Shown in pieces: positions 14,671 through 50,084 of a DNA stretch of 64,000 nucleotides. This DNA is from Candidatus Rokuibacteriota bacterium. GTDB taxonomy: Bacteria; Methylomirabilota; Methylomirabilia; Rokubacteriales; CSP1-6. The notes under the pieces are model-generated. The model ran no database searches. It was not told where the DNA came from and saw nothing but the letters and a program-made list of their open reading frames with translations. The position numbers were made by a program, and so were the translations under genes. Position 1 is the stretch's first letter; every line of letters begins with the position of its first letter. The stretch is taken from assembly GCA_040902305.1 (NCBI GenBank), contig JBBDXN010000145.1:3734-67733 (forward strand), in the 5' to 3' direction.

Positions 14671-15503
14671 CCCCGGAGCCGCCGCTGCGCGCGCCGCGCC
14701 ACCGCCCAGTAGCGGAGCGCCGGCGGCACGAGCGGCAGGCCGCCCCTCGCCGCGGTGGCCATGATGCGCAGCAGGCGCTCGCGCCGACCGTCCCACCGCA
14801 GACCATAGGCGGCGCGAATCGCGGGCGGCAAGAGCCCGACCGCCGGCAGCGCGGCCAGCCAGACCGCGGGGCCGACCCCGCGGGGGACGGGGGGCGCGAT
14901 GATGTCGCGCGAGAGGCGCCGGGCCGTGTCGGTGACCTCGATCGCCCCGGAGGCCAGCATCGCGGCCAGGTAGTCGCGGAGCTCGGTTTCCGTCCGGGGC
15001 AGCCGTCCCGGCGGGATCCCCAGCGCGCGCTCGATGCCACTCGCCTCGGCGCAGTACCGATCGGCCTCCGCCGGCGTCACCGGCCGCACGAAGAGGCGGT
15101 AGGTCAGCAGGAACGACTCGATCAGGGTGGCGTGCACCCAGGTGAGCAGCTCCGGGTCGTGGGCGCTGTAGGAGGCGCCGGCGGCCGCGCCGCCCGCGGG
15201 CTCATCGAGCCGCCCGTGGACGCGGTCGTGGATGGCATTGATCCGCGCGACGGCGCTCGCCGATGCCTCCTCGGATTCGAAGGTCAGCGCGAGCATGGTG
15301 TGGAGCGTCCGGCGCAGGCGCCGCAGGCGCCCCCACGGCTCGGTGGCGAACCCGCTGTGCTCGGCCACCCCGCGCGCCACCTTCGGATGGGCGAGCTGGA
15401 GCAGGATGGCCCGGCCCCAGCCGGCCAGGAGGACTCGCTCCCGATGTATCCTCCAGGCCATGCCGTCGGCGACGAAGGGCTCGGCTGCCAGCCGGGCGCG
15501 CAT
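14667..15503 (-). CDS. DUF2236 / MpaB-family oxygenase-like protein
   Basis: ATG 15503 in track ORF 14667..16157: ...MAWRIHRERVLLAGWGRAILLQLAHPKVARGV...INAIHDRVHG... Confidence 0.75.
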   Translation of the reverse strand: MRARLAAEPFVADGMAWRIHRERVLLAGWGRAILLQLAHPKVARGVAEHSGFATEPWGRLRRLRRTLHTMLALTFESEEASASAVARINAIHDRVHGRLDEPAGGAAAGASYSAHDPELLTWVHATLIESFLLTYRLFVRPVTPAEADRYCAEASGIERALGIPPGRLPRTETELRDYLAAMLASGAIEVTDTARRLSRDIIAPPVPRGVGPAVWLAALPAVGLLPPAIRAAYGLRWDGRRERLLRIMATAARGGLPLVPPALRYWAVARRAQRRLRG

Positions 15504-15590
15504 GGGGACATTATGCGCGCGGCCCGGAAACTTCGGGAGCCCGTCGACCGTTGTGTGGGCGTCACCCCTCATTCTCGAAAGGAGAGCGCC

Positions 15591-16151
15591 ATGCGTCGAG
15601 CCACCCCGCTCCTGGTCGCAGCCCTGCTGCTGACCGGCCTGATCGCTTCCGGCCTGCCGTGGGCCGGGCCGGTCGCCGCCCTCGAAGTCGGCCAGAAAGC
15701 GCCCGACTTCACCCTTCCCGGCCCGGGCGGCAAGCCGGTGAAGTTGTCCGACCTGACCCCCAAGGGCCCCGTCGTCGTCTTCACCTTCATCCAGGCGTTC
15801 ACGAATACCTGAACCAAGGAGCTCCTCGGCTTCGAGGAGAGCCTGCCCAAGTTCCAGGCCGCCGGCGCCCAGGTCGTCGGCGTGAGCGCCGACCATGCGG
15901 CGACGCTGGACGCCTTCACCAAGCAGTTCAAGATCAGCTACCCCCTGCTGTCCGATTTCCGGCGCACGATGCTGCCCGGGTACGACGCGCTGGTCACCGA
16001 CGAGAAGAGCCCGATCTTCCGCTACGCCAAGCGCGCCTACTACGTCATCGACAAGACCGGCGTGGTCCGGTACATGAAGATCCAGGACAATGCCCTCGAC
16101 CTGCTGGATCCCGCCGACGTGCTGAAGGCCCTCAAGGAGTCGGGCGCGTGA
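15591..16151 (+). CDS. exported peroxiredoxin (AhpC/TSA, BCP-like) with predicted selenocysteine at codon 74 (TGA 15810-15812 read through)
   Basis: ATG 15591 after AAAGGAGAG. Track ORFs 15132..15812 and 15882..16151 share a frame. The joined product reads ...FTFIQAFTNT-U-TKELLGFEESLPKFQAAGAQVVGVSADH...ISYPLLSDF, with the TGA at the peroxidatic Cys position. Signal peptide MRRATPLLVAALLLTGLIASG. Confidence 0.8.
15821..15842 (+). promoter_or_regulatory. SECIS-like hairpin downstream of UGA 15810
   Basis: GCUCCUCG-GCUU-CGAGGAG(A)GC, a 7-bp core stem. The apical loop starts with G, 17 nt after the UGA. Confidence 0.5.
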
Positions 16152-16705
16152 GCGCATCCCGGCTGGCCGCAGCCGGGGTGATCACGGCGGCGCTCTGGGC
16201 CGGGGTCACGGCGGCGCAGCCCGCCGCCGCGCCCCCGGCCTGGGAAAAGCTGGGCGTGCAGGCCTACGAATCGCCCAAGCCCGCGCCCGCCTTCGCGCTG
16301 CCCGCGCTCGACGGCCGCACCGTGCGGCTGGAGGACCAGAAGGGCAAGGCCCTGCTGCTGTTCTTCTGGGCCACCTGGTGAACGACCTGCCGGGAGGAGT
16401 TGCCTTCCGTCAACCGGCTGTACGAGGAGTTCAAGGGACAGGGGCTCCAGGTGCTGCTGATCAGCTTCCGCGAGAGCAGGGAGGTCGTGCAGCGCGCGGT
16501 GACCGCGCGCGGCTATACCGCGCCCGTGCTGCTCGACACCTCCGGCGATCTCACCGGCCGGGTCTACGGCGTCTTCGGGCCGCCCACCGCGTATCTGGTG
16601 GACCGCGAGGGGCGCCTGATCGGCCGGATGATCGGCGGCCGGGAGTGGAGCGGCGCCGCCGCGCGCGATCTCATCCGCGACTTCGTCGCGCCCCGCCCGC
16701 GATGA
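16148..16705 (+). CDS. exported TlpA/ResA-like thioredoxin-fold protein with predicted selenocysteine (U-T-T-C motif; TGA 16379-16381 read through)
   Basis: GTG 16148 (GTGA overlap with the peroxiredoxin stop). The tail of track ORF 15263..16381 and ORF 16400..16705 share a frame. The joined product reads ...KGKALLLFFWATW-U-TTCREELPSVNRLYEEF...GPPTAYLVDREGRLIG. Confidence 0.8.
16391..16409 (+). promoter_or_regulatory. SECIS-like hairpin downstream of UGA 16379
   Basis: C-GGGAGG-AGUUG-CCUUCC-G (one G-U pair). The apical loop begins 17 nt after the UGA, with G at loop position 2. Confidence 0.45.
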
Positions 16706-16739: not shown

Positions 16740-16792
16740 CCCTCACCCCGACCCACTCCCTCGCCGAGGGAGAGGGGGTCAGGGTGAGGGGG
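16740..16792. repeat. palindromic repeat (variant of the CCCTCACCC...CCCTCTCCC family) in a convergent intergenic region
   Basis: CCCTCACCCCGACCCACTCCCTC-GCCG-AGGGAGAGGGGGTCAGGGTGAGGGGG, between stops 16705 (+) and 16819 (-). Could act as a bidirectional terminator. Confidence 0.7.
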
Positions 16793-41757: not shown

Positions 41758-41773
41758 TCCGGAGGCAGATCCC

Positions 41774-42265
41774 GTGGCCAAGCACATCCTGAGCTGTACC
41801 GTCAACGGCGAGCCGGTCGAGGTGCTCGTCCAGCCGTACGTCACCCTCCTCGACGCCCTGCGCGAGGACATCGGGCTCACCGGCCCCAAGGAAGGCTGCG
41901 GCACGGGCGACTGCGGCGCCTGCACCGTCCACGTGGACGGCAAGGTGGTGGCGAGCTGCCTGATGCTGGCCATGCAGGCCCGCGGCCGGAAGATTCGCAC
42001 CATCGAGGGCCTGGCATCCGCGGACACCACCCTGCACCCGCTGCAGGACGCCTTCGTCCGCCACGGGGTGCCCCAGTGCGGCTTCTGCATCCCGGGCGTC
42101 CTGATGGCGGCGGCCGCGCTGCTCGAGGAGAACCCGCGGCCCTCCGAGGAGGAGATCCGCTACGGCATCGCCGGCAATCTCTGCCGCTGCACCGGCTACA
42201 CCAAGATGGTAACCGCGATCAGCGAGGCGGCGGGCGCCCTCGCCTCGCAGAGGAGCGCTCGATGA
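41774..42265 (+). CDS. [2Fe-2S]-binding small subunit of the molybdenum hydroxylase (CoxS-like)
   Basis: Track ORF of 163 aa: ...GCGTGDCGACTV...CLMLA... and ...QCGFCIPG...CRCTGY... Confidence 0.9.
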   Translation: MAKHILSCTVNGEPVEVLVQPYVTLLDALREDIGLTGPKEGCGTGDCGACTVHVDGKVVASCLMLAMQARGRKIRTIEGLASADTTLHPLQDAFVRHGVPQCGFCIPGVLMAAAALLEENPRPSEEEIRYGIAGNLCRCTGYTKMVTAISEAAGALASQRSAR

Positions 42266-44574
42266 GCACGATGAAGACCACGCGCGACGTCAAGGGAGTG
42301 GGGGTCTCGATCCCGCGGCCGGACGGCCCCGAGAAGGTCACCGGCCGGGTGCAGTACGTGGCCGACATCCAGCCCAAGGGCCTGCTGCACGCCAAGCTGC
42401 TGCGCAGCCCCCACGCGCACGCCAAGATCGTCTCGATCGACACCAGCGCGGCCCGAGCGCTGCCGGGCGTCCGCGCGGTCCTCACCGCCAAGGACATCCC
42501 GCATCTGAAGAAGAAGGCCCCGACGCGCGCCCACGCCGTCCTCGCGATCGACCGCGCGGTGTTCATGGGCCAGCCGGTGGCCGCGGTGGCCGCCGACGAG
42601 CTGGCCATCGCCGAGGAGGCCCTCGATCTCATCAAGGTCGAGTACCAGGTGCTGCCCGCCTCGATCGATCCGCTCAAGGCCATGCTGCCCGGCGCGCCGC
42701 CGGTGGCCGACGCGGGCACCGAGGCCGACACCAGCGAGGCGCTCGCCCACTCCGCGGTGGCCATCGCCAAGAGCGAGGCGCCCGCCAAGGCGGTGAACAT
42801 CTCCCAGCAGGCCCGCCTGCAGCGCGGCGATCCCGCCAAGGGCTTCGCCGAGTCCGATCACGTGCTCGAGAAGACCTACCGCGTGCCGATGGTGCACCAG
42901 GGCTATCTCGAGGCGCACGCGGTGCTGGCGGAGTGGGACCGCAACGGGCTGCTGACGCTGTGGGCCAGCACCCAGGGCTCGTTCAACACGCGCTCCGAGG
43001 TGGCGGACGTGCTCGGCATCCCCGAGAACCAGATCCGGGTGATTCCGGTGGAGTGCGGCGGCGGCTTCGGGGGCAAGATCCGCGCGCTCTGCGAGCCCAT
43101 CACCGCGGTGCTGGCGCAGGTCACCCGGCGGCCGGTCCGCTACGTCATGACACGGAGAGAAGAGCTGCAGGCGGGCATGCCCGCCCCGCAGGTCATCATC
43201 AAGCTCAAGACCGGCGTCAAGCGCGACGGCACCCTCATGGCCCTCGACGCGGAGACCGTCATCGATTCCGGCGCGTTCTCCGGCGCGGTGCTGGCAGTGA
43301 GCGCGGTCTTCCTCGGCAGCATGTACAAGTGGCCGTCGTTCGACATCCGCGGCTTCGAGGTGCTGACCCACAAGCCGAGCGTGGCCGCGTATCGCGCCCC
43401 GGTGGCGCCGCAGACCATCTTCGCGATCGAGTCGCACATGGAGCAGATCGCCCGGGATCTCGATCTCGATTCCGTCGAGTTCCGGATGCGCCACCTGATC
43501 CAGGAAGGCGATCCGATGGTGAACGGCCAGCCCTGGCAGTCCAACGGGGCCAAGCAGGTCCTGAGTCGCATCGCGGAACATCCCCACTGGAAGACCCGCA
43601 AGCAGTGGGTGGCCGCAGCGGGCAAGAACGGCAAGCGCCGCGGCGTGGGCCTGGCCCTCGGCGGCTGGCTCGGGGGGCTCCAGCCCACCGGGGCGACCGT
43701 CCGCTTGAACCCCGATGGATCCCTCGCCGTGCTCACCGGCCAGGTGGACATCGCGGGCACCAACATCTCGCTGGCCCAGATCGCGGCGTCCGCCTACGGG
43801 GTGGACACCGACCTGGTGCGCATCACCACCGGCGACACCGACGTCGCGCCGATGACCGGGCTCAGCGCGGGCAGCAAGACGATCTACACCGTGGGCGCGG
43901 CGGTGCTGCAGGCCGCGGAGGATGCCCGGCGGCAGACGTTCGAGATCGCCGCGAAGGAGCTCGAGGCCTCCATCCACGACCTCGAGCTGGTGGACGGCAA
44001 GGTCACGGTGCGCGGCATGCCGGACAAGGGCATCACGCTGGCCGCCATCGGCAAGAAGGGCAACCTCTACATGTCGAAGACCCCGCCGGTGCTCGGCAAG
44101 GCCAACCCGGCGTTCACCCAGCAGGCGCCGGGCTTCGCGGCCCAGCTCGCCCGGCTCGAGGTGGATCCGGACACCGGCGAGGTGACCCTCCAGGACTTCG
44201 TGATCGTCCAGGACGTGGGGAAGGCGATCAACCCGCTCGGGGTGGAAGGCCAGATGCAGGGCGGCGCGGTGCAGAGCCTCGGGATGGCGCTCACCGAAGG
44301 GCTCCTGTTCGACGACAGCGGGCGGCTCACCAACCCGAGTCTGCTCGACTATCGCAAGCTCACCGCGGCCGACCTGCCCAACCTCGAGACCATCATCGTG
44401 GAGGTGCCCGCGCCCGCCGGTCCCTTCGGCGCCCGCGGGGTGGGCGAGCCGCCCATCATCCCGGCGCCCGCCGCGATCGCCAACGCGATCCAGAACGCGA
44501 CTGGGGCGCGCCTGACCGAGCTGCCGATGAGCCCGGAGCGGATCGCGCTGGCCCTGGTCAACGGCAAGCACTGA
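42262..44574 (+). CDS. molybdopterin-binding large subunit, xanthine dehydrogenase / aldehyde oxidoreductase family
   Basis: ATG 42262 (ATGA overlap with the small-subunit stop) in track ORF 42076..44574; 770 aa: ...KVTGRVQYVADI...VECGGGFGGK...RGVGEPPIIPAPAAIANAI. It has AAYRAPVAP rather than the CODH AYRCSFR loop, so it is not a form I CO dehydrogenase. Confidence 0.9.
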   Translation: MSTMKTTRDVKGVGVSIPRPDGPEKVTGRVQYVADIQPKGLLHAKLLRSPHAHAKIVSIDTSAARALPGVRAVLTAKDIPHLKKKAPTRAHAVLAIDRAVFMGQPVAAVAADELAIAEEALDLIKVEYQVLPASIDPLKAMLPGAPPVADAGTEADTSEALAHSAVAIAKSEAPAKAVNISQQARLQRGDPAKGFAESDHVLEKTYRVPMVHQGYLEAHAVLAEWDRNGLLTLWASTQGSFNTRSEVADVLGIPENQIRVIPVECGGGFGGKIRALCEPITAVLAQVTRRPVRYVMTRREELQAGMPAPQVIIKLKTGVKRDGTLMALDAETVIDSGAFSGAVLAVSAVFLGSMYKWPSFDIRGFEVLTHKPSVAAYRAPVAPQTIFAIESHMEQIARDLDLDSVEFRMRHLIQEGDPMVNGQPWQSNGAKQVLSRIAEHPHWKTRKQWVAAAGKNGKRRGVGLALGGWLGGLQPTGATVRLNPDGSLAVLTGQVDIAGTNISLAQIAASAYGVDTDLVRITTGDTDVAPMTGLSAGSKTIYTVGAAVLQAAEDARRQTFEIAAKELEASIHDLELVDGKVTVRGMPDKGITLAAIGKKGNLYMSKTPPVLGKANPAFTQQAPGFAAQLARLEVDPDTGEVTLQDFVIVQDVGKAINPLGVEGQMQGGAVQSLGMALTEGLLFDDSGRLTNPSLLDYRKLTAADLPNLETIIVEVPAPAGPFGARGVGEPPIIPAPAAIANAIQNATGARLTELPMSPERIALALVNGKH

Positions 44575-44587
44575 GCAGGAGGCGGGC

Positions 44588-46033
44588 ATGAAGGCAGGCG
44601 AGATCTTCGTCGCGGGGAAGTGGCAGGCGACGCGGTCGGGTGAGACCTACCAGCCGATCAACCCGGCCAACGAGGAGCCGATCTCGGCGGTCGGCAAGGG
44701 CGACGAGCGCGACATCGATCTGGCGGTGACGGCGGCCCGCAAGGCCTTCGACGAGGGCCCGTGGCCGAAGATGTCGCCCCACGAGCGCGGCCGCATCGTC
44801 TGGCGCCTCGGCGACCTGATCCAGCAGAACCTCGACGAGATGGCCCGGCTCGAGAGCCTCTGCACCGGCAAGACCATGTTCGACTCGGGCAAGGTCGAGA
44901 TCCCGTTCGCGGCCGAGGTCTTCCGCTACTACGCGGGCTGGGCCACCAAGATCCACGGCGAGACGCTCGGCCTGCGCGACAACGCGTTCACCTTCACGCT
45001 GCGCCAGCCGGTGGGGGTGGTCGGGGCGATCGTGCCCTGGAACTTCCCCTTCCTGCTCTCGTCCTGGAAGATCGCCCCCGCGCTGGCCGCGGGCAACACG
45101 ATGGTGATCAAGCCCGCGTCGCAGACCCCGCTCACCGCGCTGCGCTTCGCCGAGATCTGCCAGGAGGCGGGGGTGCCGGAGGGCGTGTTCAACGTGGTGA
45201 CCGGGCCGGGCGGCAAGGTGGGCATGGCCCTGGTGCGGGATCCGCGCGTCGACAAGATCGCCTTCACCGGCTCCACCGAGGTCGGCCGGCAGATCATGCG
45301 CGAGGCGGCGGGCACGCTCAAGCGCCTCTCGCTCGAGCTGGGCGGCAAGTCGCCCAACATCGTGTTCGCGGACGCGGACATGGACGCGGCGGTGCGCGGC
45401 GCGCTCACCGGCATCTTCTACAACAAGGGCGAGGTGTGCGCGGCCGGCTCGCGGCTCTTCCTGGAAGACTCGATCCACGACCAGTTCATGTCCAAGCTCA
45501 CCGACCGGGTCAAGAGCCTGAAGGTCGGCGACCCGATGGACAAGACCACCCGCATGGGGCCGGTGGTGTCGAAGGGCCAGATGGAGACCGTGCTGTCCTA
45601 CATCGAGTCCGGCAAGCAGGAAGGGGCGCGGGTGGTGGCGGGCGGCGGCCGGGCCGACGTCGGCACCGGCAAGGGCTACTTCATTCAGCCCACCATCTTC
45701 GACGGGGTCACCAACGAGATGAAGATCGCCCGCGAGGAGATCTTCGGGCCGGTGCTCTCGGTGATCCCGTTCCGCTCGGTCGAGGACGGCATCGCCCAGG
45801 GCAACCACACCTCCTACGGCCTGGCCGCCGCGGTGTGGACGCGAGACGTCTCCAAGGCGCTGAAGGCGGCGAAGGCGATCCGGGCGGGCACGGTGTGGGT
45901 CAACGCCTACAACCTCTTCGACGCGGCGCTGCCGTTCGGCGGCTTCAAGGAGTCGGGCTTCGGCCGCGAGATGGGGTCGGTGGGGCTCGACAACTACACC
46001 GAGGTCAAGACCGTCTGGGTCGACCTGTCGTAG
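44588..46033 (+). CDS. NAD(P)-dependent aldehyde dehydrogenase
   Basis: Track ORF of 481 aa, preceded by AGGAGG: ...VPWNFPFLL...FTGSTEVGR...LELGGKSP...NKGEVCAAGSR...EEIFGPV... Confidence 0.95.
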   Translation: MKAGEIFVAGKWQATRSGETYQPINPANEEPISAVGKGDERDIDLAVTAARKAFDEGPWPKMSPHERGRIVWRLGDLIQQNLDEMARLESLCTGKTMFDSGKVEIPFAAEVFRYYAGWATKIHGETLGLRDNAFTFTLRQPVGVVGAIVPWNFPFLLSSWKIAPALAAGNTMVIKPASQTPLTALRFAEICQEAGVPEGVFNVVTGPGGKVGMALVRDPRVDKIAFTGSTEVGRQIMREAAGTLKRLSLELGGKSPNIVFADADMDAAVRGALTGIFYNKGEVCAAGSRLFLEDSIHDQFMSKLTDRVKSLKVGDPMDKTTRMGPVVSKGQMETVLSYIESGKQEGARVVAGGGRADVGTGKGYFIQPTIFDGVTNEMKIAREEIFGPVLSVIPFRSVEDGIAQGNHTSYGLAAAVWTRDVSKALKAAKAIRAGTVWVNAYNLFDAALPFGGFKESGFGREMGSVGLDNYTEVKTVWVDLS

Positions 46034-46053: not shown

Positions 46054-48288
46054 ATGCGCTCGCCGTCCGCCGCTGACATCCGGCACGACCTGGTCCTGGT
46101 GGGCGGCGGTCACACCCACATCCAGGTGCTCAAGCGGTGGGCCATGGGCCCCGTGCCGGGGGCGCGCCTGACCCTCGTCGTGGACCGGCCGATCGCGGTG
46201 TACTCCGGCATGGTGCCGGGCTTCGTGGCCGGCCAGTACTCCCGGGAAGACCTCGAGATCGACGTGCGGCCCCTCGCGCTCCGCGCGGGGGCGCGCTGCA
46301 TCGTGGCCGCCGCCTCCGGGCTCGACACGGCCGCGCGGCGCCTCGCGCTCCGTGGCCGCCCGCCGATCGCCTACGACACGGTCTCCTTCGACGTGGGCTC
46401 CACGGTGGCCGGGCTCGAAGTGCCCGGCGTCCGCGAGCACGCGCTCCCCACCCGCCCCATCGGCGATTTCGTCCGTCGCGTGGACGAGGTGCCGGCCACG
46501 GCGCGGGGTCGCGACCTCTTTCGGGTCGTCGTGGTCGGCGCGGGCGCCGGAGGCGTCGAGGTCGCCTTCGCCCTCGCCGCGCGACTGGGCCGCGAGCGTG
46601 CCGGCCGCGTCGAGGTGCTGCTCCTCGAGTCCGGTCCGCGGGTGCTGCCCGGCTACGCGGCGAGCGCGGCCGGGCGCGTCGAGGCCGCCGCGGCGGCGCG
46701 GGGGATCGCGATCCGCGTGGGCGCGCGCGTCGCCCAGGTCGAGGGCGATGCGGTGCGCCTGGAAGGCGGCGAGCGGCTGCCCGCCGACGGGGTGGTCTGG
46801 GTGGCCGGCGCCGCCGCGCTCCCGATCTTCGACGGCTCCGGGCTCGAGACGGACGAGGCCGGCTTCGCGCGGATCCGCCCCACGCTCCACTGCGTGGGGC
46901 ACGACGACACGAGAACGGTGGGCGACTGCGCGGCGTGGACCGCGGGCCCGGGCCTGGCCAAGGCCGGCGTGTACGCGGTCCGCCAGGGCCCGGTGCTCGC
47001 GCACAACCTGATCGCGCGCCTCCGCGGCCGGCGGCTCCGCGCCTACCGCCCGCAGCGCGACTTCCTCTCGCTCCTGAACCTGGGCGACGGCCACGCGATC
47101 GGAACCAAGTGGGGCGTCTCGGTCCAGGGCCGTCGCGTGTTCGCGCTCAAGAACTGGATCGACCGCCGCTTCGTGCGCCGCTTCCAGGTGCTCGATCAGG
47201 ACGGCGCGGTCACGCCCGACTTCGCGGCCGCGCCCATGCCCGGCGGGGACATGCTCTGCGGCGGCTGCGCGGCCAAGGTGGGCGAGTCCTCGCTCACCCG
47301 CGCGCTCGAGCGGCTCGGCGTCCCGAGCTGCCCCGCCGTCGTCCTGGGCCTGGCCCAGCCCGACGACGCGGCCGCGGTGGAGAGCGAGCGCGGCGAGATC
47401 GTCGCCGCCACCGTCGACTCCTTCCGCGCCTTCGCCGACGATCCCTACCTGGTCGGCCGCGTCGCGGCGGTGAACGCGGTCAGCGATCTCTGGGCCAAGG
47501 GCGTGGCGCCGCGGTTCGCGCTGGCCCAGGTGAGCGTGCCGGACACCGAGCCCGCGCGGGCGGAGGAGACGCTCTACCAGGTGATGGCGGGCGCCCGCGC
47601 GGCGCTGGACGCCGACGGCGTCACCCTCGTGGGCGGCCACACCACGACGGGGCCGGAGCTGGTGGTGGGCTTCGCGGTCTGGGGCTTCGCGGCCTCGGCG
47701 GATGCGCTGATCCGCATCGGGGGCGTCGCGCCGGGGGATCAGCTCATCCTGACCAAGCCGCTCGGCACCGGTGTGATCCTCCAGGCCGACATGCGCGGGC
47801 TGGCGCGGGGCGAGTGGGTGGAGGCGGCCGACGCGTCCATGCTCCGCTCCAATGGATCGGCCGCGCGGGCGATGGCCGCGCGGCGGCCGACCGCCGCCAC
47901 CGACGTCACCGGCTTCGGACTGGCCGGGCACCTGGGCGGGATGCTGCGCGCGAGCAAATGCTCCGCGGTGCTCGACCTCGCCGCGCTGCCCGCCCTGCCC
48001 GGCGCGGTGGCCCTGCTGACCCGGGGCGTGCGGAGCACCGCCCACCCCGAGAACGCCCGGGCCCGGCGCGCCATCCTCGTGGAGCCGGAGGCCGGGACGC
48101 ATCCGGCGCTGGATCTGCTCTTCGACCCGCAAACCTCGGGCGGGTTGCTGCTCGGAGTCTCGCGAGATCGGAGCATGGCGATGCTGGCGGCGCTGCGCGA
48201 GGCCGGCGACGAGCGCGCCGCCATCATCGGCGAGGTCACGCCGCCGCGACCCGACGGGGCGCTGATCCGGGTGGTTGCAACCGCCTAG
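46054..48288 (+). CDS. selD: fusion protein: FAD-dependent pyridine nucleotide-disulfide oxidoreductase (NDH-2-like) + selenide, water dikinase SelD
   Basis: ATG 46054 in track ORF 44761..48288; 744 aa. N-terminal part: LVLVGGGHTHIQVL...VVVVGAGAGGVEVAFAL. C-terminal part: ...GDMLCGGCAAKVGES...DDAAVV...VNAVSDLWAKG...LVGGHTT...LILTKPLGTG...ATDVTGFGLAGHL (AIR-synthase-like SelD fold, Cys form). Confidence 0.9.
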   Translation: MRSPSAADIRHDLVLVGGGHTHIQVLKRWAMGPVPGARLTLVVDRPIAVYSGMVPGFVAGQYSREDLEIDVRPLALRAGARCIVAAASGLDTAARRLALRGRPPIAYDTVSFDVGSTVAGLEVPGVREHALPTRPIGDFVRRVDEVPATARGRDLFRVVVVGAGAGGVEVAFALAARLGRERAGRVEVLLLESGPRVLPGYAASAAGRVEAAAAARGIAIRVGARVAQVEGDAVRLEGGERLPADGVVWVAGAAALPIFDGSGLETDEAGFARIRPTLHCVGHDDTRTVGDCAAWTAGPGLAKAGVYAVRQGPVLAHNLIARLRGRRLRAYRPQRDFLSLLNLGDGHAIGTKWGVSVQGRRVFALKNWIDRRFVRRFQVLDQDGAVTPDFAAAPMPGGDMLCGGCAAKVGESSLTRALERLGVPSCPAVVLGLAQPDDAAAVESERGEIVAATVDSFRAFADDPYLVGRVAAVNAVSDLWAKGVAPRFALAQVSVPDTEPARAEETLYQVMAGARAALDADGVTLVGGHTTTGPELVVGFAVWGFAASADALIRIGGVAPGDQLILTKPLGTGVILQADMRGLARGEWVEAADASMLRSNGSAARAMAARRPTAATDVTGFGLAGHLGGMLRASKCSAVLDLAALPALPGAVALLTRGVRSTAHPENARARRAILVEPEAGTHPALDLLFDPQTSGGLLLGVSRDRSMAMLAALREAGDERAAIIGEVTPPRPDGALIRVVATA

Positions 48289-48299
48289 ATCAACGGAGG

Positions 48300-48638
48300 C
48301 TACTGGGCCGCGCGCCGGCGGGCGGCCGGGGCGATCTCGACGACCAGCCCGCCGCCCCAGCCGTACTTGGCTTCGGAGAGTCGGCGGATCGTGGACACCA
48401 GATCCCGCTCGCCCCGAGCATCGACCACGCGGGCGCGCCCGCGGAAGGTCCGGCGGCCGACGCGCGCCCGCACCGCGGGCTCCGCGAGGAGATTCTGCAC
48501 CCAGTGCGCCTTCCGGCCGTGCTCGGCGACCAGGTAGTAGCGGCCCTGTTGGCGGGTGAACCAGATCTCGATCCGCCGGGCAAGCCCGCTGCGCCGCCCG
48601 GTCGTGGTCAGATAGAGGTATTTCAGCTCGGGGCTCAC
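48300..48638 (-). CDS. DUF385 / deazaflavin-dependent nitroreductase-family protein
   Basis: Track ORF of 112 aa: ...LYLTTTGRRSGLARRIEIWFTRQQGRYYLVAEHGRKAHWVQNLLAEPAVRARVG... Confidence 0.7.
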   Translation of the reverse strand: MSPELKYLYLTTTGRRSGLARRIEIWFTRQQGRYYLVAEHGRKAHWVQNLLAEPAVRARVGRRTFRGRARVVDARGERDLVSTIRRLSEAKYGWGGGLVVEIAPAARRRAAQ

Positions 48639-48970
48639 GCGCCGAAGGCGCGCTCGAACTGCCGCCTGGCCGCGTCGTCGAGGCCGTTACGGAACTTCTT
48701 GTAGCGCTCGAGGAAGCGCTTGCCCGCCTTGGTGAGGCGCATGCCGCTCGCGGGGCCGCCGCCGGGCACACGCTCCACGAACTTGAAGCCGGCCGCCTCC
48801 TCGAGGTCGCGGAGGTAGCCCCACGCGTTGCGGTAGGACATCTCGAGCTCCTGGGCCGCCTTCTTGAGCGACCCGCGCTCCTCGATCAGCTCGAAGAGCC
48901 GGGCCCGCCCGTCTCCGAACTTGAGCTGGTCACCGAACATCACCCAGACGCGCAGCTTGGGCTTCATCAC
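48635..48970 (-). CDS. ModE-N-terminal-like winged-helix regulator (molybdate-responsive family, no Mop domains)
   Basis: Track ORF of 111 aa: ...GRARLFELIEERGSLKKAAQELEMSYRNAWGYLRDLEEAAGFKFVER...GMRLTKAGKRFL... ATGA overlap with the downstream DUF385 gene. Confidence 0.7.
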   Translation of the reverse strand: MMKPKLRVWVMFGDQLKFGDGRARLFELIEERGSLKKAAQELEMSYRNAWGYLRDLEEAAGFKFVERVPGGGPASGMRLTKAGKRFLERYKKFRNGLDDAARRQFERAFGA

Positions 48971-49577
48971 CGCGCATCTTACTCAAGGGAGAGGGCTTCG
49001 GCCAGTCGCGGGGAGGGGCCGCGCTCAAGCGTCGGCGGCGGTGGACTCGGCGGTGAAGCGTCCCGATCCGTCGCGCCGATCCCAGCGGGCGCGCGGGGTC
49101 CGCTGGATCTCCCGGCGCGTCATCGCCCGCCGCGGGTCCCAGATTCCCCGCCCGTAGGCGTCGAGAAGCCGTTACGATCCGCCTGAGATGCCCCTCTCCA
49201 GCCTCCAGCTCGCGTGCCTGGTCCAAGCCTATGTGGCCGAGCCCGGCGGCTCCCTCGAGGAGAAGGCGAGCCGGGCCGGGGTCCGCCGGAGCGTGCTCCT
49301 GCGAGCCGGGCGGGGCACGATCTCCCGCACCACCAGGCTGCGCCTGCTTGCTTTCTTCGCCGCGGCCGGCGCGCGCCGGGGTCGACGGCCTCGTCGCCAG
49401 CCGAAACGGGGGGTTACATGAGCCCCGCCTCGGCCGGGCGGCGCCCGGCGCAGGAGGCAGTCCCGACGACGGGGCCGGCGCCCCACCCCGGGGCCGGCTG
49501 TGGTACCCTAGCCGCCGCTCGCTGAATCGCGCGAGCCAAGCACGCCGCGCTCAAACCACCTCGAGGAGGAGAAACCC

Positions 49578-50084
49578 ATGCCGATCAAAGTTGGTGATCG
49601 CGTGCCGGACGGCACGCTCACGGAGTTCATCGAGCAGGAAACCCCGGGCTGCACCGTCGGCCCCAACGCGTTCCAGGTGGCCGACCTGACCAAGGGCAAG
49701 AAGATCGTCGTCTTCGGCCTGCCCGGCGCCTTCACCCCCACCTGCTCGGCCAAGCACGTGCCGGGCTACGTGGCGAACGTCGACAAGCTCAAGGGCAAGG
49801 GCATCGACGAGGTCTGGTGCGTGTCCGTCAACGACGCCTTCGTTATGGGCGCGTGGGCCAAGGACCAGAAGAGTGCCGGCAAGGTCCGCTTGATGGCCGA
49901 CGGCAGCGCCGCGCTCACCAAGGCGATGGGCCTCGAGATGGATCTCACCGCTCGCGGGATGGGGGTGCGCTCCCAGCGCTACTCGATGCTGGTGGACAAC
50001 GGCGTGGTCAAGTCGCTGAACGTGGAGCAGCCCGGCAAGTTCGAGGTGAGCGACGCCGATTCGATGCTGAAACAGATCGGCTAA
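49578..50084 (+). CDS. peroxiredoxin, Prx5 subfamily (Cys form)
   Basis: Track ORF of 168 aa, preceded by GGAGGAG: ...KKIVVFGLPGAFTPTCSAKHVPGY...VWCVSVNDAFVMGAW... Confidence 0.9.
   Translation: MPIKVGDRVPDGTLTEFIEQETPGCTVGPNAFQVADLTKGKKIVVFGLPGAFTPTCSAKHVPGYVANVDKLKGKGIDEVWCVSVNDAFVMGAWAKDQKSAGKVRLMADGSAALTKAMGLEMDLTARGMGVRSQRYSMLVDNGVVKSLNVEQPGKFEVSDADSMLKQIG

Follow-up and report, generated by a model that had tools for sequence, protein, structure and literature searches.

In a 64,000-nt stretch of DNA from a Candidatus Rokuibacteriota bacterium (assembly GCA_040902305.1, contig JBBDXN010000145.1, positions 3,734 to 67,733 of the forward strand), hereafter called the window and numbered from its first letter, a TlpA/ResA-like thioredoxin-fold gene lies directly behind a peroxiredoxin (Prx) gene and is interrupted by an in-frame TGA at its predicted active site. 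Its frame runs for 185 codons, from GTG 16148-16150 to the stop TGA 16703-16705, and codon 78 is the internal TGA at 16379-16381. If this codon is read as selenocysteine (Sec, U), the product carries the motif FFWATW-U-TTC-REELPSVN, with U78-T-T-C81 as its redox site. The initial annotation had proposed that the open reading frame (ORF) at 16400..16705 and the tail of the ORF at 15263..16381 are halves of one frame split by this TGA, and that read-through from the GTG yields 185 amino acids; both statements hold. The features of the locus are the following.

16148..16705, plus strand: TlpA/ResA-like thioredoxin-fold gene, a predicted selenoprotein gene (translation, Pfam matches across the TGA, PDB relatives, 83 related loci)
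16379..16381, plus strand: putative UGA selenocysteine codon, residue 78, in place of the first Cys of CxxC (TGA in 84/84; aligned to Cys in relatives and structures)
16391..16409, plus strand: SECIS-type (selenocysteine insertion sequence) hairpin C-GGGAGG-AGUUG-CCUUCC-G (bacterial SECIS fit, covariation, rare codons)
16134..16150, plus strand: Shine-Dalgarno AAGGAG (16134-16139), an 8-nt spacer and the GTG start (16148-16150), from reading of the sequence
16148..16216, plus strand: probable signal peptide or anchor (VSASRLAAAGVITAALWAGVTAA followed by QP), read by eye
16580..16588, plus strand: P145-P146-T147, with P146 on the conserved cis-proline of ResA-type folds (phmmer alignment to ResA chains)
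15591..16151, plus strand: exported BCP/PrxQ-like peroxiredoxin, as predicted, with an in-frame UGA at 15810-15812 (FTNT-U-TKE; best hits Bcp/PrxQ, hairpin)

The GTG start overlaps the Prx stop TGA 16149-16151 by 4 nt (GTGA), and relatives have equivalent overlaps (ATGA in L001, TGATG in L015; L numbers denote related loci and P numbers stored proteins), an arrangement that implies translational coupling. By eye, the N-terminus VSASRLAAAGVITAALWAGVTAA shows a basic n-region, a hydrophobic core and a TAA motif, and the relatives carry classical AxA-type signal peptides; export through an N-terminal signal peptide or anchor is thus probable. When the whole window was scanned for in-frame TGAs flanked on both sides by coding-type G+C content at third codon positions, only codon 78, the Prx codon at 15810 and one ordinary gene junction were returned.

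Family placement of the read-through protein

With Cys put at the U position, the Pfam matches run across the TGA: AhpC-TSA (5.4e-26, 91.4 bits against a cutoff of 26, residues 44-157), Redoxin (6e-20, 72 bits), Thioredoxin_8 (37.1 bits) and Thioredoxin. Using phmmer, we found relatives of known structure with E-values ranging from 2e-28 to 1e-10, among them 3kcm (2e-28), ResA (1e-24 to 1e-19), DsbE and TlpA 1jfu (3e-17). The claim that the TGA occupies the attacking-Cys position of the TlpA/ResA/DsbE motif (W-U-T-T-C) is borne out by alignment to CxxC homologues, in which U78 falls on the N-terminal Cys, both in Cys-type relatives (P0004, P0006, P0007, P0023, P0112 and P0119) and on the first Cys of W-C-x-x-C in 3kcm and the ResA/TlpA/DsbE structures. 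In the same kind of alignment the cis-Pro loop appears to be present, P146-T147 lying on the P-T of the ResA chains, and exactly one Cys, the C of UxxC, is encoded in all 84 sequences. By its fold, its W-U-T-T-C motif and its cis-Pro, the predicted protein belongs to the TlpA-like thioredoxin-fold family (cd02966), and at NCBI one relative is entered as "TlpA disulfide reductase family protein, partial".

No NCBIfam model was reached at its cutoff, neither among the orthologue models (ResA 97.3 bits against 170, TlpA 76.1 against 230, StoA 72.9 against 210, DsbE 54.4 against 123) nor among the curated Sec redoxins (WAxxUGC ResA-like 54.7 against 300, TUGYCR redoxin 17.7 against 100), and SelL-related (34.1 against 120) and PrxU (27.7 against 270) also stayed below. 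Since the protein falls short of both groups, we consider it to represent a distinct, uncurated subfamily. Judged from its residues, this Methylomirabilota/Rokubacteria protein would be a subfamily within the UxxC TlpA/Prx-like selenoproteins that have already been published.

Conservation of the internal TGA and of the hairpin behind it

A search of 5.8 billion proteins (E<=1e-5) gave 410 matches, of which 120 were listed. By our count from the table, about 105 of the 120 matches listed are C-terminal fragments of 101-109 amino acids that start just after the TGA, and these are mis-called gene halves; a few others among the matches listed are relatives that span the full length and show either C or an unusual residue at the U column. 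On the DNA side, 83 related loci were collected, 80 from a scan of one genome per GTDB species and 3 by protein look-up, to which the window adds an 84th; the 80 scan loci come nearly all from Methylomirabilota/Rokubacteria metagenome-assembled genomes (MAGs). Every one of the 83 loci that carry the codon has TGA at the U column (84/84 with the window), in the context FFWATW-U-xx-C-R(E/K)ELP. The genuine stops of these genes serve as a control and are divided among TGA (38), TAG (37) and TAA (8). For the 36 codons before the TGA, variability at codon positions 1/2/3 amounts to 0.13/0.12/0.33, and beyond the TGA it amounts to 0.18/0.16/0.33, a similar pattern on either side, which argues that one frame is under purifying selection throughout. 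The homologous genes thus do not truly end at this codon: the TGA is kept in 84/84, the selected frame continues beyond it and the true stops vary.

Some stored proteins show other residues at the U column, namely W in P0003, G in P0002, L in P0008 and S in P0043. The Trp of P0003 was rejected as a real substitution, the DNA there being TGA; a TGA=Trp code was apparently applied, because genetic code table 11 does not reproduce the stored protein. The Gly of P0002 corresponds to a GGA codon on a contig of 1.9x coverage with an intact hairpin, and was set aside as an error or a very recent mutation. The W form and the G form map to L084 464-997 and L085 235-765. Reassignment of UGA across the genome was ruled out, as both genes of the operon end in TGA. 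In P0001, from a 573-nt ENA contig, a 131-aa ORF joins the C-terminal half to an N-terminal half and ends in FFWATW, which reflects either tandem copies or an assembly artefact. Operon contigs of 69-72% G+C also occur in MAGs labelled Nitrosotalea, Nitrosocosmicus, Verrucomicrobiia, Acidoferrum and Dormiibacterota (L017, L065, L021, L066, L004, L013 and others); most likely, these are mis-binned Methylomirabilota contigs and not cases of horizontal transfer.

The hairpin consists of C16391, GGGAGG at 16392-16397, the loop AGUUG at 16398-16402, CCUUCC at 16403-16408 and G16409. It starts 10 nt after the UGA, and the distance from UGA to apical loop is 16 nt. The bacterial SECIS (bSECIS) model specifies a loop of 3-9 nt, a stem of 4-16 bp, 16-37 nt from UGA to loop and a minimum free energy (MFE) of at most -7.5 kcal/mol, and it places a G at one of the first two nucleotides of the loop, as a rule with G or U next (PMC13188914). 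The hairpin lies within all these limits (a 5-nt loop with G at position 2 and then U, a stem of 6-7 bp, 16 nt), the folding energy being -9.5 to -10.5 kcal/mol (-9.5 for the hairpin alone), so that the SECIS-like spacing reported in the initial annotation fits both the letters and the published limits.

All six core pairs are intact in each of the 78 distinct sequences, among which pair 3 is G-U in 46, A-U in 21, G-C in 10 and U-A in 1, and pair 4 is A-U in 74, G-C in 3 and C-G in 1. None of 500 column shuffles reached the observed pairing or covariation, and slid registers were only 53-67% paired. Compensatory variants include GGAGGG/CCCUCC in L035 and GGUCGG/CCGACC in L081; as such variants alter the protein (REELPS to RRELPS in L035, L052 and L061, and to RSELPT in L081), RNA pairing is preserved at some cost to the peptide. 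The hairpin is also spelled with codons that are rare in the confident genes of this 71% G+C window, TTR (TTG/TTA) making up 2.0% of Leu and CCT 2.3% of Pro codons, and its third-position variability is 0.125, compared with 0.33 in the flanks. It is thus covariation and codon usage that validate the hairpin, thermodynamics alone being insufficient.

Two Cys-type (TGC) loci complete the picture. L087 (2804-3331) encodes REELPAI through GAG CTG CCG GCG and has no hairpin, while in L086 (3088-3627) the hairpin is weakened, its top pair being lost through CCT to GCT; in both, the upstream Prx is still split at its own TGA. From their sequences we read these loci as natural Sec-to-Cys conversions of one partner only. 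Taken together, we are highly confident that this is a genuine selenoprotein gene, as predicted from sequence, with a well-supported SECIS.

The peroxiredoxin operon, selenium supply and competing explanations

The Prx gene lies directly upstream of the TlpA-like gene in 76 of the 83 loci and is its sole conserved neighbour. Its N-terminus is signal-like, its best NCBIfam matches are Bcp/PrxQ, below cutoff, and its position -7 holds Ile where PxxxTxxC canonically has Pro. In 70 of the 76 loci the aligned Prx codon is TGA; in the remaining six, local translation shows that the alignment offset is wrong. The mature Prx contains no Cys in 69 of 70 sequences. A hairpin, CUCCUCG-GCUU-CGAGGAG, lies at 15822-15839, 16 nt from the Prx UGA; RNAalifold found no consensus in the Prx SECIS region, and by eye there are at least two registers across the loci, this one and CCGCG-GCUUCGA-CGCGG.

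Only some 15 close relatives share further neighbours (MpaB-like oxygenase, GNAT, FMN reductase, luciferase-like monooxygenase and Lhr). No context of cytochrome c maturation or Cu-centre assembly was found among the window neighbours, and only L034 has CcdA and heavy-metal-associated (HMA) domain genes nearby. At that locus (826-2484), from which Prx is absent, the genes ahead of the TlpA-like Sec gene encode a thioredoxin-like protein, a membrane protein of the CcdA/DsbD family (1043-1903) and a heavy-metal-associated-domain protein; this arrangement fits a CcdA-type donor and leaves room for a classical TlpA role.

Selenium supply and the remaining features of the neighbourhood are listed here.

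46054..48288, plus strand: pyridine-nucleotide-disulfide oxidoreductase-SelD (selenophosphate synthetase) fusion, Cys-type, with a CGGC motif (tblastn, NCBIfam)
16740..16790, no strand assigned: imperfect 19-nt inverted repeat (CCCTCACCCCGACCCACTC / GAGGGGGTCAGGGTGAGGG) between the convergent TlpA-like and FMN-reductase genes

The E. coli SelD matches the fusion at 47263-48273 (tblastn, 34% identity, E 2e-40), which scores 386.6 bits with TIGR03169 (cutoff 310) and 272.9 bits with TIGR00476 selD (cutoff 125); a CxxC (CGGC) motif has been described for Ndh-SelD fusions (PMC2398784). The gene directly follows a xanthine-dehydrogenase-family molybdoenzyme gene (41758-44571) and an aldehyde dehydrogenase gene (44531-46030). 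Further on, a second Redoxin-family gene at 49512-50081 (plus strand), presumed to be Cys-type, adjoins a divergent LysR-type regulator gene at 48638-48982 (minus strand).

The inverted repeat at 16740-16790 occurs once in the window. It lacks a T-run and is possibly a terminator hairpin; consensus scans for promoters and terminators returned nothing, this repeat not being called. The intergenic stretch at 15500-15590, between the divergent MpaB-like gene and Prx, is nearly identical to L015 9110-9195 (cattatgcgcgcggcccggaaacttcgggagccc) and is possibly a promoter or operator that the relatives share; a sigma-70 consensus was looked for in it and not found.

Of the Sec machinery, SelD was thus found in the window, and the sequence searched yielded no selA, selB or tRNA-Sec. 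ARAGORN, run on the window and 60 loci, detected no tRNA-Sec and called no tRNA at all in the window. Its "tRNA-Ala(cgc)" calls of 97-98 nt (L015 8741-8838 and L020 8768-8864) are probable false positives, since they lie inside a conserved MpaB/Lcp-like oxygenase gene on the opposite strand and none is called in the window. The E. coli SelA had no tblastn match in the window or in any locus, and the sole SelB-like match in the same sequences is TypA/BipA. More broadly, one Methylomirabilota MAG is reported with 63 predicted selenoprotein genes (PMC13188914), and Sec-type [NiFeSe] hydrogenases occur in the phylum; overall, some 90% of the Sec-type genomes had detectable selABCD (PMC13582414).

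On this evidence it is very likely, as far as can be read from the DNA, that 16148-16705 encodes one exported TlpA/ResA-like thiol:disulfide (selenol/thiol) oxidoreductase in which UGA-78 is decoded as Sec to form a U-x-x-C site. SelB carrying Sec-tRNA(Sec) would bind the hairpin at 16391-16409, within the coding sequence, while the ribosome stands at the UGA, and the selenophosphate would be supplied by the SelD fusion encoded 30 kb downstream. The TlpA-like gene would come second in an operon of two selenoprotein genes, behind a cistron for an exported PrxQ-like Prx with Sec as its sole redox residue. A mature Prx without Cys or resolving residue needs an external thiol or selenol, and for this reason we infer that the TlpA-like protein is its reductant; whether the two proteins are functionally paired seems to us, from the gene order and residues, an evenly balanced question.

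In the relay that we envisage, the Prx selenolate would reduce peroxide and become a selenenic acid, which the Sec of the TlpA-like protein would attack to give an intermolecular Se-Se (or Se-S) bond. C81 would then resolve this bond into an intramolecular selenenylsulfide in the TlpA-like protein, and a membrane electron transporter of the CcdA/DsbD type, encoded elsewhere, would re-reduce it. Tentatively, and with somewhat more doubt than belief, we propose that the operon is a dedicated extracytoplasmic all-selenium peroxide relay, in which a one-Sec Prx without resolving Cys and a UxxC TlpA-like reductase work via an intermolecular diselenide/selenenylsulfide, conserved as a unit across Methylomirabilota/Rokubacteria.

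Several observations weigh against these proposals. SelD adjoins the xanthine-dehydrogenase-family molybdoenzyme and could also, or instead, serve the labile-Se-cofactor trait, and because of this neighbour SelD alone is no proof of a Sec trait. Neither selA, selB nor tRNA-Sec turned up in the window or in about 1.16 Mb of related loci, an absence that is uninformative since only genome fragments of about 20 kb each were covered. Rfam gave no SECIS or other meaningful family, either for the whole window at gathering threshold or for 15750-16480 at E<=10. As a single sequence, the region has an MFE no better than shuffles (z 0.1-0.3), and when more of the surrounding sequence is folded with it, just 4 of the hairpin pairs survive in the MFE structure, nested in another helix. 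The hairpin encodes the conserved residues REELPSV, and part of its conservation is therefore at the protein level. In 7 of the 83 loci the TlpA-like gene occurs without Prx, and L034 excepted, no CcdA/DsbD gene adjoins it in the loci searched. Finally, export and the Prx-TlpA relay are steps that we infer from these predicted sequences.

How else might the locus be explained? Public gene callers treat the TGA as a true stop, which would make the locus a pseudogene, two small ORFs or a sequencing error, and the many fragments among the 120 matches listed follow that annotation. We give this explanation a negligible probability: the same TGA recurs in 83 independent assemblies with in-frame purifying selection on both sides, real stops use three codons where the internal codon is always TGA, and the stop would cut the Pfam domain exactly at the active site, leaving halves neither of which alone is a thioredoxin fold. 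A real read-through gene whose UGA is decoded as Cys by a tRNA of the tRNA-ReC/SelC*-type, or as Trp by a near-cognate tRNA, would instead yield an ordinary CxxC/WxxC protein. tRNA-ReC can decode SECIS-associated UGA as Cys, an inherent limit of prediction from sequence (PMC13582414), and no tRNA-Sec was recovered from the window or the loci searched. This decoding is nevertheless quite improbable here, given that SelD is present in the window, that Sec use is predicted for the phylum (PMC13188914) and tRNA-ReC is reported mainly in other phyla, and that a costly UGA with its hairpin, kept in 84/84, would be pointless for Cys when the one-base change to TGC works, as in L086 and L087.

Other explanations accept Sec and assign the protein a different task. 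A selenoprotein with a classical TlpA/ResA/CcmG job, acting on apocytochrome c or on Sco/CoxB Cu-site proteins and not in Prx recycling, would agree with the best family matches (ResA, TlpA, StoA and DsbE), with the gene order at L034 and with the seven loci without Prx. Yet no NCBIfam equivalog or subfamily cutoff is reached (ResA 97 bits against 170), no ccm, cytochrome or Sco genes lie nearby in the window, and the only conserved neighbour is a Prx joined by a 4-nt overlap and lacking a resolving Cys of its own, so that we regard a classical role as unlikely. We see little chance that the TlpA-like selenoprotein is itself a peroxidase working parallel to Prx and not in series with it. The strongest Pfam match is AhpC-TSA, and the family was historically named "Prx-like" (PMC2398784), but the protein has a thioredoxin-type WxxW-UxxC motif and a cis-Pro, does not show the PxxxTxxC/Arg peroxidatic signature, and its solved relatives are reductases. 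The preferred explanation thus remains an exported Sec-containing TlpA-like oxidoreductase, possibly in the service of the Prx.

Significance and relation to known systems

The literature already describes UxxC TlpA/Prx-like selenoproteins and Methylomirabilota rich in selenoproteins, and gene callers routinely split this known kind of bacterial selenoprotein in two. The present locus leaves the concept of bacterial selenoproteins unchanged. The evidence for it is unusually clean and it exposes a large gap in annotation, but its biology would not surprise a specialist in selenoproteins. The locus corrects a systematic error: in the 5.8-billion-protein collection, most entries of the family are 101-aa fragments labelled "hypothetical/peroxiredoxin/partial TlpA", and others, translated with genetic code 4, have W at the Sec site. 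The Prx-TlpA operon is invisible in current annotation because its two genes are broken there into four ORFs, two apiece. The training of Sec predictors should profit from a well-supported SECIS for which nature supplies compensatory variants and Sec-to-Cys revertants, and so should the definition of SelB specificity in an uncultured phylum. The Sec-Prx/Sec-TlpA pair points to a conserved module for antioxidant defence in the envelope of abundant soil bacteria, and would be relevant to the question of why soil lineages that are largely aerobic maintain large selenoproteomes.

The hairpin resembles the E. coli fdhF-type SECIS and the bSECIS consensus in being an in-ORF stem-loop directly 3' of the UGA with a stable upper stem (PMC13188914, Fig. 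2), and also in its small apical loop, which opens with G and then U, and its 16-nt spacing. It differs from the fdhF SECIS in having no sequence similarity to it, in belonging to no Rfam family, and in a spacing at the lower limit of 16-37 nt.

Established UxxC families comprise the "Prx-like thiol:disulfide oxidoreductase", "Prx-like 1" and "thiol-disulfide isomerase-like" proteins (PF00578 or cd02966) (Zhang and Gladyshev 2008, PMC2398784; review PMC13188914). With the Prx-like and thiol-disulfide isomerase-like selenoproteins the protein in the window shares the TlpA-like fold, the PF00578/PF08534 match and Sec as the first residue of UxxC, along with a SECIS directly after the UGA and many Cys homologues. 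Family descriptions set its subfamily apart by its occurrence in soil and groundwater Methylomirabilota/Rokubacteria and its signature FFWATW-U-xx-C-REELPSVN; unlike the Prx-like selenoproteins, it is almost always encoded by the second gene after a Sec-peroxiredoxin and reaches no NCBIfam model at cutoff. Bacterial Prx-like UxxC selenoproteins are reportedly also treated by Kryukov and Gladyshev (2004).

ResA of Bacillus, TlpA of Bradyrhizobium and CcmG/DsbE (1st9, 4nmu, 1jfu, 3kcm) have in common with the window protein the fold, W-C-x-x-C on helix 1 and the cis-Pro loop, as well as an N-terminal export signal, read by eye in the window protein. The latter differs in carrying Sec, as predicted, for the nucleophilic Cys; by the NCBIfam cutoffs it is orthologous to none of them, and its gene has no cytochrome c or Cu-maturation context.

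The best mechanistic model for the operon, by analogy, may be the envelope peroxide pathway ScsB -> TlpA -> PprX (PrxQ-type) of Caulobacter crescentus, which is experimentally established (PMC3322552). Both systems would combine an exported TlpA-like reductase with an exported PrxQ-type Prx. In the window pair, unlike that of Caulobacter, Sec is predicted in both proteins, the Prx lacks a resolving Cys, no ScsB/DsbD/CcdA gene adjoins, and the two genes overlap in one operon, from which their pairing is suggested.

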